From NCBI GenBank assembly GCA_964449445.1, contig CAYUZT010000006.1:12223-76222 (forward strand): 64,000 nt of DNA. The letters are read 5' to 3'. The number at the start of each line of letters is the position of its first letter. Position 1 is the first letter of the stretch. The position numbers were made by a program, and so were the translations under genes. This DNA is from an uncultured Candidatus Peribacteria bacterium (GTDB taxonomy: Bacteria; Patescibacteriota; Gracilibacteria; Peribacterales; Peribacteraceae). Below the pieces are notes generated by a model. The model saw only the letters and a program-made list of their open reading frames with translations, made no database searches and had not been told where the DNA came from. Shown one piece after another: positions 32,165 through 33,820 of this stretch.

Positions 32165-33820
32165 ATGCAACAGACATGCGCCACTTGCAGTACTTCTTTC
32201 GTTATTGCCGAAGAGGACCTCGTGTTCTACAAGGAAATGGCCGTGCCCAAACCGAGAGATTGCCCGACATGTCGCTCACAGTCCCGCTGCCTTCATCGTA
32301 ACGAGCGGAATCTCTATCGACGGTCATGTGATTTGTGTAAGAGCAACGTGGTTGCCATGTATCCGATGACCGCGCCATTTCCTGTGTATTGCACGTCATG
32401 TTTTTACGGCGATGGCTGGAATCCGTTCGATTTTGGGAAGGACTACGATCCTCATCGTCCGTTCTTCGAGCAACTCGGCCAAATCCACGCTGCAGTTCCA
32501 CATCTCGCGATCATGAACAAACAGTCGGAGAACAGCGACTATTGCAATTACTCCTTCGCGAACAAGAATTGCTATCTGACCGGAGGAAGCCATTACGAAG
32601 AAGATTGTCTCTATGGGGCATATTCAACGAAAAACAAGGACTGTGTCGACTGTCTGTGGGCATATGGCAGCGAACTCCTCTACGAAACAATGTTCTGTAG
32701 GAATTGTTACTCATCTGCCTTTCTCGACCATTGTGAGGACTGTCAGGAATGTTTCTTCAGCCGCGATCTCAAAGGCTGTGCTCATTGCCTCTTCTCCGCC
32801 AATCTACGGCAGAAGAAGTTCTGCGTCTTCAACGAGCAGAAAACTGAGAAGGAGTATCGCCGAATATTCGAATCGCTCGGCCTCTCAACATTTTCTGGAC
32901 TCGAAGCGGCAAAGAATACATACATGACGGAATTGCCCCGACGCTTCCCCGTCCGCGCGAACTATCTGGTGCAATGCGAGAACTGTGAAGGAGACACGCT
33001 CAGCAATTGCAAGAATATGCGACAGTGCTTCTACGGTTCTGACAGTGAGGACTGCGCATACGGCGTGCAAGTCGACGGTACCTACAGCTCACTCGATATC
33101 GATTATATGGGCTATGACCGCAGCGAAAAACTCTATCAAGCAATCGGATGTTTGGGCCTCTTCGATTGCATTGCTTGCAACGCATGTTGGAATGGCGGTG
33201 ACTTGCGATATTGTCAGAACTGTTTTTCCTGTAACGATTGTTTCGGGTGTATCTCATTGCGACAACAGAAAAACTGCATCCTTAACAAGCAATATTCAAA
33301 GGAAACTTACCAAAAACTGATCGGACTCATCATTGTGAATATGACGAAAGCTGAAGAGTGGGGTAATTTCCTTCCAGCATCGCTCACTCCCTTCGGTTAC
33401 AACGAATCGATGGCGCAAGATTGGGTTCCTCTCAAGAAAGAAGAGGCGCTGAAACGGGGGCACCGATGGAAAGACGGTGAGGAAATTCAGAATGTCTCCA
33501 AAGTCATCGATGCCAAGCGGCTCCCCGATGCAATCGACGATATTCCCGATGACATCCTCAATTGGGCTCTGCGATGCTCCCAAACCTTGAGACCTTTCCG
33601 CATCGTAAAGAGAGAACTCGATTTCTACCGACGTATGCGGCTCCCCGTTCCCCACATTCACCCGGATGAGCGTCATCGTCACCGCAAGGCAATGCGCAAT
33701 CCCCGCAAGCTCTGGCAACGACAATGCGCCAAGTGCAGTAAGGCGATCACGACGAGCTTTGCTCCCGAGCGGCCTGAGAAGATTTACTGCGAGGAATGTT
33801 ACTTGAAGGAGGTTTATTAA
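32165..33820 (+). CDS. Cys-rich double-zinc-ribbon repeat protein, paralog 3
   Basis: N-terminal module keeps all four Cys pairs (CATC, CPTC, CDLC, CTSC); ends CEECYLKEVY; TATACT 8 nt before ATG. Confidence 0.9.
   Translation: MQQTCATCSTSFVIAEEDLVFYKEMAVPKPRDCPTCRSQSRCLHRNERNLYRRSCDLCKSNVVAMYPMTAPFPVYCTSCFYGDGWNPFDFGKDYDPHRPFFEQLGQIHAAVPHLAIMNKQSENSDYCNYSFANKNCYLTGGSHYEEDCLYGAYSTKNKDCVDCLWAYGSELLYETMFCRNCYSSAFLDHCEDCQECFFSRDLKGCAHCLFSANLRQKKFCVFNEQKTEKEYRRIFESLGLSTFSGLEAAKNTYMTELPRRFPVRANYLVQCENCEGDTLSNCKNMRQCFYGSDSEDCAYGVQVDGTYSSLDIDYMGYDRSEKLYQAIGCLGLFDCIACNACWNGGDLRYCQNCFSCNDCFGCISLRQQKNCILNKQYSKETYQKLIGLIIVNMTKAEEWGNFLPASLTPFGYNESMAQDWVPLKKEEALKRGHRWKDGEEIQNVSKVIDAKRLPDAIDDIPDDILNWALRCSQTLRPFRIVKRELDFYRRMRLPVPHIHPDERHRHRKAMRNPRKLWQRQCAKCSKAITTSFAPERPEKIYCEECYLKEVY

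Follow-up and report, generated by a model that had tools for sequence, protein, structure and literature searches.

The window analysed here, a stretch of 64,000 nucleotides from an uncultured Candidatus Peribacteria bacterium (assembly GCA_964449445.1, contig CAYUZT010000006.1, positions 12,223 to 76,222 of the forward strand), carries, from 25.4 to 51.8 kb and all in the + orientation, 12 paralogous open reading frames (ORFs) of ~550-566 amino acids (aa), whose products contain 6.3-7.9% cysteine. The third of these tandem paralogs is the ORF at 32165-33820 (+), with 551 aa, for which a first-pass annotation had proposed that the two ends of each protein are homologous zinc-binding modules. 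As detailed below, every paralog begins and ends with a diverged copy of the same two-finger cassette of ~80 aa, and those inner fingers that have lost their zinc ligands are remodelled rather than decaying. N1 and N2 designate the first and second fingers of the N-terminal module (N-module), and C1 and C2 those of the C-terminal one (C-module), so that N1 and C2 are the outer fingers and N2 and C1 the inner ones.

The array and the architecture of its proteins

The starts of the paralogs are ORF-finder extensions trimmed to the Met preceding the first CxxC. The array reads as follows:

25395-27089 (+), paralog 1; N-module 25395-25652, C-module 26835-27086; N1 and C2 intact
28022-29722 (+), paralog 2; N-module 28022-28279, C-module 29468-29719; N1, C1 and C2 intact
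32165-33820 (+), paralog 3, 551 aa; N1, N2 and C2 intact
35803-37482 (+), paralog 4; N-module 35803-36060, C-module 37228-37479; N1 and C2 intact
37479-39149 (+), paralog 5; N-module 37479-37736, C-module 38895-39146; N1 and C2 intact
39152-40828 (+), paralog 6; N-module 39152-39409, C-module 40574-40825; N1 and C2 intact
40828-42495 (+), paralog 7; N-module 40828-41085, C-module 42241-42492; N1 and C2 intact
42500-44164 (+), paralog 8; N-module 42500-42757, C-module 43910-44161; N1 and C2 intact
44218-45873 (+), paralog 9; N-module 44218-44475, C-module 45619-45870; only C2 intact
45878-47566 (+), paralog 10; N-module 45878-46135, C-module 47312-47563; N1, N2 and C2 intact
48223-49902 (+), paralog 11; N-module 48223-48480, C-module 49648-49899; N1 and C2 intact
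50169-51836 (+), paralog 12; N-module 50169-50426, C-module 51582-51833; N1 (with a C-x4-C knuckle) and C2 intact

In the head-to-tail series of paralogs 4-10 (35803-47566), consecutive genes are separated by -4, 2, -1, 4, 53 and 4 nt, a tight packing that suggests a single transcript and possibly coupled translation of the seven genes. The 12 genes take up ~20 kb of the window, which would be a sizeable share of the genome judged by the ~1.36 Mb of the one complete relative found.

All the proteins share the same architecture, in which a module is followed by two homologous core repeats, a linker and a second module (M-R-R'-linker-M'). For paralog 3 the parts are:

32165-32299 (+), N1, aa 1-45; PF13451-like finger with C5xxC8, F-x-I...DL-x-FY, P-x-P, C33PxC36 and the start of the R37/R41/R45 helix
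32300-32419 (+), N2, aa 46-85; finger of the CxxC-x17-CxxC type with C55, C58, C76 and C79
32468-32878 (+), core repeat A, aa 102-238; Cys-rich
32915-33331 (+), core repeat B, aa 251-389; homologous to repeat A
33332-33559 (+), helical linker, aa 390-465; defined by near-invariant columns and secondary structure, with a conserved GEWG-FFP...SPF-YNE motif
33560-33694 (+), C1, aa 466-510; ligand-less finger with C471, T474, H499 and E502, followed by the R503/R507/R511 helix
33695-33817 (+), C2, aa 511-551; intact CxxC-x17-CxxC finger with C521, C524, C542 and C545

The homology of the two core repeats is clear from profiles of a 114-sequence family alignment (hhalign E=5.2e-30 over 136 columns, in the numbering of paralog 3). 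This internal duplication holds in all paralogs, and both halves finish with the motif C-x2-C-x-[CS]-x-N/S-L-R-x-K-x-[YC]-x-[IV]-x-N-x-Q-x-[ST]-K-E-E-Y. The core has no match in Pfam, NCBIfam or PADLOC, and its sole PHROGs match is a weak one between repeat B of paralog 3 (aa 267-381) and phrog_15341, of unknown function (E=2.6e-7). A Foldseek search with the full predicted model gave weak matches to the left-handed β-helix enzymes LpxD, GlmU and LpxA (E≥2.4e-3, template modelling (TM) score ≤0.1), which suggest a solenoid-like core and nothing beyond that. Membership of the left-handed β-helix or hexapeptide-repeat proteins proper was discarded, given those TM scores and a core without a Pfam Hexapep match.

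Two-finger cassettes at both ends

The first ~85 and the last ~86 aa can be aligned over their full length in all 12 paralogs. The first-pass annotation had named a profile-profile comparison of the two ends as the test that could refute their homology; run with hhalign on the 12 N-modules versus the 12 C-modules, it gave a probability of 99.5% and E=3.6e-23 over 77 columns, and with N and C profiles cut from the 114-sequence family alignment the value was E=4.4e-30, so that homology passed the test. Moreover, BLASTP with composition correction found E<1e-3 in 117 of the 144 possible N x C pairs, the best of which align over 77-86 aa with up to 61.6 bits and 30-39% identity. Chance or biased composition could be thought to produce such a similarity, given the abundance of Cys and Arg at both ends and the short CxxC motifs spread all through the protein. 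The controls leave practically no room for this explanation: the N-module versus the Cys-rich core gave E=0.12 and the C-module versus the core E=0.087, and the C-profile gave E=0.015 once reversed and E=0.01-0.25 in ten column shuffles. In addition, many of the aligned columns belong to motifs other than Cys (FY, P-x-P, RN-R-L[YW]-R, Y-x-P and VY), and one stand-alone protein, described below, can be aligned separately to each end. A module hidden Markov model (HMM) run on the six-frame translation of the window found exactly 24 copies, with none inside the cores and none as a free-standing small ORF. We therefore regard the two ends of every paralog as copies of one ancestral cassette.

All the Cys motifs quoted in the first-pass annotation are present in the sequences. 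The N-modules of paralog 3 (C5ATC8, C33PTC36, C55DLC58 and C76TSC79) and paralog 10 (CSNC, CPDC, CGLC and CREC) keep four Cys pairs, whilst in the remaining copies the N2 knuckle is replaced by sequences such as CDLSGK or YDKTGK; at the other end, the CxxC-x17-CxxC of the C-module is unbroken in 12 of 12 paralogs, and paralog 2 alone keeps CSQC plus CPDC and with them a complete C-module. Two details go beyond that description. Paralog 9 lacks the N1 ligands as well (CRLTGK...CPEERL), and the first knuckle of paralog 12 is C-x4-C. As a separate observation, eight of the 12 N-modules (paralogs 1, 2, 4, 5, 6, 7, 10 and 11; e.g., 25395-25652) contain an insertion of 9 aa, S-P-x-[IF]-x-G-K-x-[YF], placed after the FY helix and ahead of the P-x-P motif. 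This insertion is missing from the other four N-modules, from all C-modules and from the stand-alone proteins.

The cassette consists of a finger of the PF13451 type (CxxC, F-x-I...FY helix, P-x-P, CPxC) followed by a finger of the PF23477/TIGR04272 type (CxxC-x17-CxxC), the two of them joined by a helix with a conserved R-x3-R-x3-R ladder. In Pfam, PF13451 is zf_Tbcl, a 'probable treble clef domain', and PF23477 is zf_Tbcl_2, whereas TIGR04272 is the NCBIfam 'CxxC-x17-CxxC domain'. PF13451 is matched by eight of 12 N-modules and two of 12 C-modules, with N-module scores of 17.9-23.5 bits, the highest being that of paralog 3, against a cutoff of 24 bits. PF23477 is reported at E<1 for the 12 C-modules (best 6.5e-7) and for one N-module; the C-modules of paralogs 5 (27.6 bits) and 7 (29.4 bits) lie above its cutoff of 27 bits, and the others scored 21-24. 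In paralog 3, C2 reaches 24.3 bits on PF23477 (E=2.5e-5) and 20.3 bits on TIGR04272, whose cutoff is 36 bits. Several homologs of the family bear a precomputed PF13451 match. At the level of motifs, the PF13451 pattern (two CxxC pairs around F-x-[FI]...[EQ]-x-FY) is complete in 11 of the 12 N1 fingers and, among the C1 fingers, only in that of paralog 2; all 24 modules have the FY segment, and the full Cys set is missing from C1 in 11 of 12. The exact 17-residue CxxC spacing is kept in C2 of all 12 paralogs, in an ungapped alignment, and in N2 of paralogs 3 (C58 to C76) and 10.

Stand-alone homologs, whose search at ~80-100 aa the first-pass annotation had proposed, do exist: ~92-aa proteins with all eight Cys are abundant. 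A tblastn search of plasmid records with the N-module of paralog 3 found the 92-aa protein WP_187028406.1 of Pusillibacter faecalis, annotated as 'zinc-ribbon domain containing protein', with scores of 88 bits for PF13451 and 68 bits for PF23477/TIGR04272. Over its full length, this protein aligns at 98% probability with the N-profile (E=2.8e-14) as well as with the C-profile (E=8.2e-15), compared to E=0.05-0.33 for the core profiles. At least 7777 clusters, at 90% identity, of such stand-alone proteins of 92-150 aa were counted, all with both Pfam domains.

The predicted fold of the two ends agrees with their homology. An AlphaFold2 model of paralog 3 built with 114 sequences reached a mean predicted local distance difference test (pLDDT) of 88.6 and a predicted TM (pTM) score of 0.88, and the two modules are among its best-predicted parts (pLDDT 87-97). 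The elements predicted in each module, with β-strands as E and α-helices as H, are:

N-module: E2-4, E11-13, H16-25, H34-42, E51-54, E61-64, E74-75, H77-80
C-module: E467-470, E477-478, H482-490, H500-509, E517-520, E527-530, E539-541, H543-550

In the AlphaFold2 model each element of the N-module has a counterpart in the C-module, always shifted by 466 residues, despite a C1 without its Cys quartet, and in both modules the order of the elements is β-β-(α)-α in the first finger and β-β-α in the second (pLDDT 91-97). The pLDDT of N1 in paralog 3 is 94-96, and that of the ligand-less C1 is 93-97. A second model of the N-module only, built from N, C and stand-alone sequences, gave the same elements with a pLDDT of 92.2.

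In treble-clef fingers the first ligand pair sits on a β-hairpin, the zinc knuckle, and the second at the N-terminus of a helix, whereas in zinc ribbons both pairs come from β-hairpin knuckles. Both AlphaFold models place a helix N-terminus at the second CxxC of each finger (helix 34-42 for C33/C36, helix 77-80 for C76/C79 and helix 543-550 for C542/C545), and so the predicted fingers fit a treble-clef arrangement and not that of classical zinc ribbons. The label of 'zinc ribbon' given to the modules in the first-pass annotation should therefore be abandoned, also in view of the Pfam matches to PF13451 and PF23477, both of the 'probable treble clef' kind. As another candidate, membership of the LIM domains (PF00412) was rejected: the best score was 22.8 bits against a cutoff of 22.9, the match covered only HMM positions 28-57, and the modules lack an abutting CCHC finger.

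As for how the intact fingers work, small CxxC-x17-CxxC proteins of Methanosarcina mazei have been purified and found to bind zinc by inductively coupled plasma mass spectrometry (ICP-MS) (PMC12704099), which is the only experimental evidence found for this type of finger. By analogy, we infer that the intact CxxC-x17-CxxC fingers of the array bind one zinc through four Cys. The archaeal proteins share with C2 of the 12 paralogs, and with N2 of paralogs 3 and 10, the same motif; they differ in having a single finger, and the likeness holds at the level of TIGR04272 only, on which paralog 3 stays well under the cutoff, as given above.

Fate of the zinc ligands

The state of the four fingers was scored in 358 non-identical sequences, comprising the window paralogs, close homologs, representatives at 50% identity and ORFs from 80 genome loci. 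All four Cys are kept in 84% of N1, 44% of N2, 22% of C1 and 95% of C2, which bears out the asymmetric loss first described for the array. The commonest sets of intact fingers in these 358 sequences are:

N1 and C2 only: 35%
N1, N2 and C2: 26%
all four fingers: 15%
C2 only: 10%
N1, C1 and C2: 6%

The first-pass annotation had concluded that each end keeps one functional ribbon. This is indeed the commonest state, in the family and in the window (eight of 12 paralogs), but it is not a rule, as every combination of fingers occurs; earlier samples agree with these figures. Nor are the two inner losses complementary, since N2 loss and C1 loss are positively associated (odds ratio of 4.2, uncorrected for phylogeny). 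A loss-only count on a core-based neighbour-joining (NJ) tree gave ~60 losses each for N2 and C1, 22 for N1 and 9 for C2, numbers that are biased upward and come from a rough tree. The four-finger state is scattered across this tree. The ancestor of the family had all four fingers, in keeping with the idea that the ancestral unit was a complete two-finger module, for which the eight-Cys stand-alone homologs and the ~15% of the family that keeps four fingers speak as well.

The replacements themselves are stereotyped. Ligand-less fingers retain the first Cys in 78% of N2 and 97% of C1, and in both of them the second ligand has become Thr or Ser in 95% of cases (CxxC to Cxx[T/S]); in ligand-less C1, His (62%) or Cys (22%) stands in the third ligand position, and Glu (47%) or Gln (31%) in the fourth. 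The Arg ladder that follows the second ligand pair (R37/R41/R45 in the N-module, R503/R507/R511 in the C-module) is 71-100% conserved in any Cys state, with R503 and R507 at 96-100%. Moreover, the mean pairwise identity of ligand-less fingers matches that of intact ones (0.46 versus 0.49 for N2, 0.44 versus 0.43 for C1) and exceeds that of the core repeats (0.35-0.38). Because ligand-less fingers are as conserved as intact ones, they are remodelled and not decaying.

These data bear on an alternative close to the notion of reciprocal degeneration with which the modules were initially presented, in which the ligand-less fingers would be decaying relics left after the duplication and only one finger per end would matter. 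The many losses of Cys in the inner fingers would be expected from such relics, and the replacement of CPDCR by HPDERH, quoted in the first-pass annotation, fits as well. However, fingers in decay should not be conserved like intact ones and above the core, nor show a C-x-x-[T/S] in 95% of cases and a His and a Glu or Gln in C1, nor keep R503 and R507 almost invariant, nor be predicted with the secondary structure of intact fingers at the pLDDT given above for C1. We find this explanation very improbable.

A second alternative takes the replacements at face value and proposes that Cys471, Thr474, His499 and Glu502 of C1, close to His504, continue to form a metal-binding site, of an open and non-structural geometry, so that the paralogs would differ in their demand for metals or in metal sensing. 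The retention in ligand-less C1 of the first Cys (97%) and of a His or Cys at the third position (84%), together with the Glu at the fourth (47%) and a His504 present in 64-70%, could be read in this way. In the same line, related loci carry metal-related genes next to the arrays: Nramp plus MgtE-like genes lie just upstream of the array in one of them (L003, JGI Ga0172379_10000137, 2993-5754), and a FUR-family regulator plus a ferredoxin gene just downstream in another (L004, ERZ25039495 contig_62969, 12023-12746). On the other hand, the fourth position is Gln, Val or Ile in ~40% of the sequences and the Thr or Ser of the second is a poor ligand, ligand-less N2 has no plausible ligands past the first Cys, each set of metal-related neighbours was observed in a single locus, and there is no Zur/Fur gene among the window ORFs scanned. 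Altogether, a remodelled metal site seems to us an improbable explanation for the inner fingers.

Taken as a whole, we consider it probable that the outer zinc fingers of the homologous end cassettes were kept and the inner ones remodelled. The intact fingers would probably hold one structural zinc each, through four Cys in a treble-clef geometry; the outermost N1 and C2, almost always kept, would need it. The inner N2 and C1, which adjoin the core in the sequence, would have shed their ligands in many independent events that took the same stereotyped course, and yet they keep their predicted fold and stay under purifying selection like that on the intact fingers. The metal would most likely be replaced as the stabiliser of these inner fingers by packing inside the large protein. 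The mean net charge is +3.4 for the N-modules and +8.4 for the C-modules versus -14.5 for the core (pI of about 8.5, 9.6 and 5.1, respectively). In this regard, the modules might tentatively be seen as docking or binding surfaces for a polyanion, possibly a nucleic acid as the best candidate. Such a ligand is favoured because the Arg ladder is conserved in any zinc state and shared with the stand-alone proteins, which have basic residues at its counterparts (+1/+5/+9 after the second Cys pair).

Several observations weigh against this interpretation. Most modules of the window score slightly under the Pfam cutoffs, and the evidence for nucleic-acid binding consists of charge plus an analogy with other treble-clef fingers. 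The Cys/Thr/His/Glu set of C1 could still bind a metal with a different geometry, and the loss counts carry the bias noted above. No solved structure or experiment was found for the host family or for the full cassette. The best profile match in the Protein Data Bank (PDB), obtained with single-protein, module and full-length profiles, is the second LIM finger of CRP/MLP proteins, at a borderline E=6e-4, and Foldseek found nothing at E≤1e-3, either with the full model versus PDB and BFVD or with the module model versus PDB. A mean-field direct coupling analysis of 358 sequences (effective number of sequences, Neff, 343; L 551) yielded mostly hub and gap artefacts, failed to recover the Cys quartets and supports no conclusion.

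The remodelled inner fingers also allow for a different reading, in which the two ends form one unit. One PF13451-type and one PF23477-type site, N1 and C2 in the commonest state, would then make up a single cassette split across the chain, with the ligand-less inner fingers as the interface between the N- and C-modules. The pairing might occur within one chain or head-to-tail between co-transcribed paralogs, in which case the β-solenoid-like cores would form closed rings or heteropolymeric filaments. We regard such a split cassette as rather improbable and keep the homologous end modules with remodelled inner fingers as the preferred interpretation.

Origin, genomic setting and relation to known systems

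N-modules, C-modules and stand-alone proteins form one clade each. These separate clades show that the split between N and C is older than the expansion of the paralogs. Moreover, the M-R-R'-linker-M' order is impossible to obtain from a single tandem duplication, so at least two events are required. Mean identities are 28% between N and C modules, 22% between N-modules and stand-alone proteins and 24.5% between C-modules and stand-alone proteins, and the N-module of paralog 3 scores 55-62 bits against C-modules versus 39 bits against the stand-alone WP_187028406.1. These values favour N and C modules as each other's closest relatives, within a comparison where one stand-alone lineage (Oscillospiraceae) was sampled. 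Of the earlier idea of an ancestral domain duplicated to both ends, the part that stands is that the ends are copies of one unit; intragenic duplication and two fusions are inseparable on the present data. A separate capture of the N and C cassettes, by fusion of stand-alone PF13451+PF23477 genes to a core gene, is an alternative that we judge unlikely. The great abundance of stand-alone cassette genes would have offered the material for it, and both the M-R-R'-M' order and the 9-aa insertion, frequent in N-modules and missing in C-modules and stand-alone proteins, are compatible with independent arrivals. However, P-x-P and RN[EP]R-x-L[YW]-x-R are common to N and C modules and missing from the stand-alone proteins sampled, and the closeness of N and C just described, although referred to Oscillospiraceae stand-alone proteins only, also points to a shared origin within the family.

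The host family is large. A word-indexed search gave 3993 matches, and an exhaustive one, taken to E≤1e-30, at least 2431 clusters (50% identity), the best 150 of which all share the ~550-aa architecture. Its members, often in tandem arrays, were found essentially only in metagenome-assembled genomes (MAGs) of Peribacteria, Peregrinibacteria, Gracilibacteria and Patescibacteria, and a tblastn search of phage and plasmid collections with the full protein found no match. Some apparent homologs of 487 aa truncated at the N-terminus proved to be miscalled starts, as the in-frame DNA upstream encodes a complete N-module after a GTG start (L003, 5812-7464). The literature search found no paper describing the family; the cysteine-rich gene cluster of Ca. 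Peribacter riflensis (PMC4736985) was considered and rejected, since it encodes different, large extracellular proteins.

Other genes around the array in the window are:

22743-23705 (-), 23780-24442 (-), 55760-56596 (+) and 60896-62401 (+), flanking genes: class I Trp/Tyr-tRNA synthetase, pseudouridine synthase, YdjC-like and, by eye, a DnaX-like clamp-loader subunit
27149-27916 (-), 29772-30530 (-) and 34773-35528 (-), three paralogous TrmB-family helix-turn-helix (HTH) genes of ~250 aa, between paralogs 1 and 2, 2 and 3, and 3 and 4
30609-32147, sodium:solute symporter gene, directly before paralog 3
52103-54346 (+), VirD4/TraG-like coupling ATPase of 747 aa after paralog 12, with T4SS-DNA_transf, TrwB_AAD_bind and phrog_5156 (E=5.5e-71) matches

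The housekeeping genes at the flanks fit a chromosomal location of the array in a Peribacteria-like genome. TrmB-like genes are also interleaved with arrays elsewhere (in L004, in the contig of homolog P0109 and in 14 of 82 six-kb loci), and the same VirD4-like gene, whose homologs carry DUF8128, flanks the arrays of L004 and of the P0109 contig, as well as those of 10 of 82 loci from other genomes.

At the nucleotide level, the sequence GGTATACTRA occurs in five copies on the + strand of the window compared to 0.02 expected. Two of them (42486-42495 and 45864-45873) encode the E-V-Y-stop that closes paralogs 7 and 9, with the ATG of the following paralog shortly after; the other three (32149-32158, 44201-44210 and 48209-48218) are intergenic and lie 6-8 nt before paralogs 3, 9 and 11, where the similarity stops upstream. 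It may be a shared element of the start region, and may add a nucleotide-level constraint on the conserved C-terminal KEVY.

Among known systems, the closest to the modules are the stand-alone PF13451+PF23477 proteins, annotated as 'zinc-ribbon domain containing protein' or 'CxxC-x17-CxxC domain-containing protein'. Both have the same order of fingers, the same CxxC...FY...CxxC-R and CxxC-x17-CxxC spacing and the same basic positions after the second Cys pair, and they align end-to-end at E of about 1e-14. The stand-alone proteins, however, are free polypeptides of 92-150 aa with all eight Cys, without P-x-P and RN[EP]R-L[YW]-R and with only 22-25% identity, whereas in the host family the cassette occurs twice, flanks a 380-aa core and usually misses one ligand set. 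The second (CCCC) finger of the LIM domains of CRP/MLP proteins (PDB 1b8t, 1ctl and 2o13) is also similar, with a C-x2-C-x17-C-x2-C spacing and a [K]-x-[IL]...YC-x2-CY motif. LIM fingers abut each other with a 2-residue spacer and the first of them is CCHC, in contrast to the ~20-aa Arg-rich helix that parts two types of finger in our case.

For the loss of ligands, a parallel comes from ribosomal proteins. Recurrent loss of the zinc ligands with fold and function kept is well established for zinc-ribbon ribosomal proteins (L31, L33, L36, S14 and S18), whose C+ and C- paralogs were reportedly described by Makarova et al. in 2001. Zinc-independent alternative ribosomal proteins have also been described (PMC5912738). 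As in our family, four-Cys sets were lost repeatedly and independently in a domain that stays conserved, and both forms coexist in one genome. The ribosomal cases differ in that they are paralogs of whole proteins with a known function and switched by Zur, whereas the loss reported here is specific to a position within one protein.

What was already known is thus the cassette, as Pfam and NCBIfam families, and, from ribosomal proteins, the loss of zinc ligands in a domain that is kept. Its use as homologous bookends on a lineage-specific, internally duplicated and uncharacterised core is new, and so are the position-specific loss of ligands, in the inner finger of each copy, and the convergent replacement of these ligands. 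Domain duplication and zinc-ligand loss are unsurprising in themselves, and the cassette does not reveal the function of the family. Recognising the ends as a known zinc-finger cassette is nonetheless the first structural handle on a large unannotated family, from which a terminal zinc stoichiometry of 1, 2, 3 or 4 can be predicted by paralog: three for paralogs 2, 3 and 10, one for paralog 9 and two for most. Both forms of the same finger, intact and ligand-less, stand side by side in one putative operon, and with its hundreds of members, its many independent losses and its stereotyped C-x-x-[T/S] replacement the family offers a natural series for how a zinc finger becomes zinc-independent.

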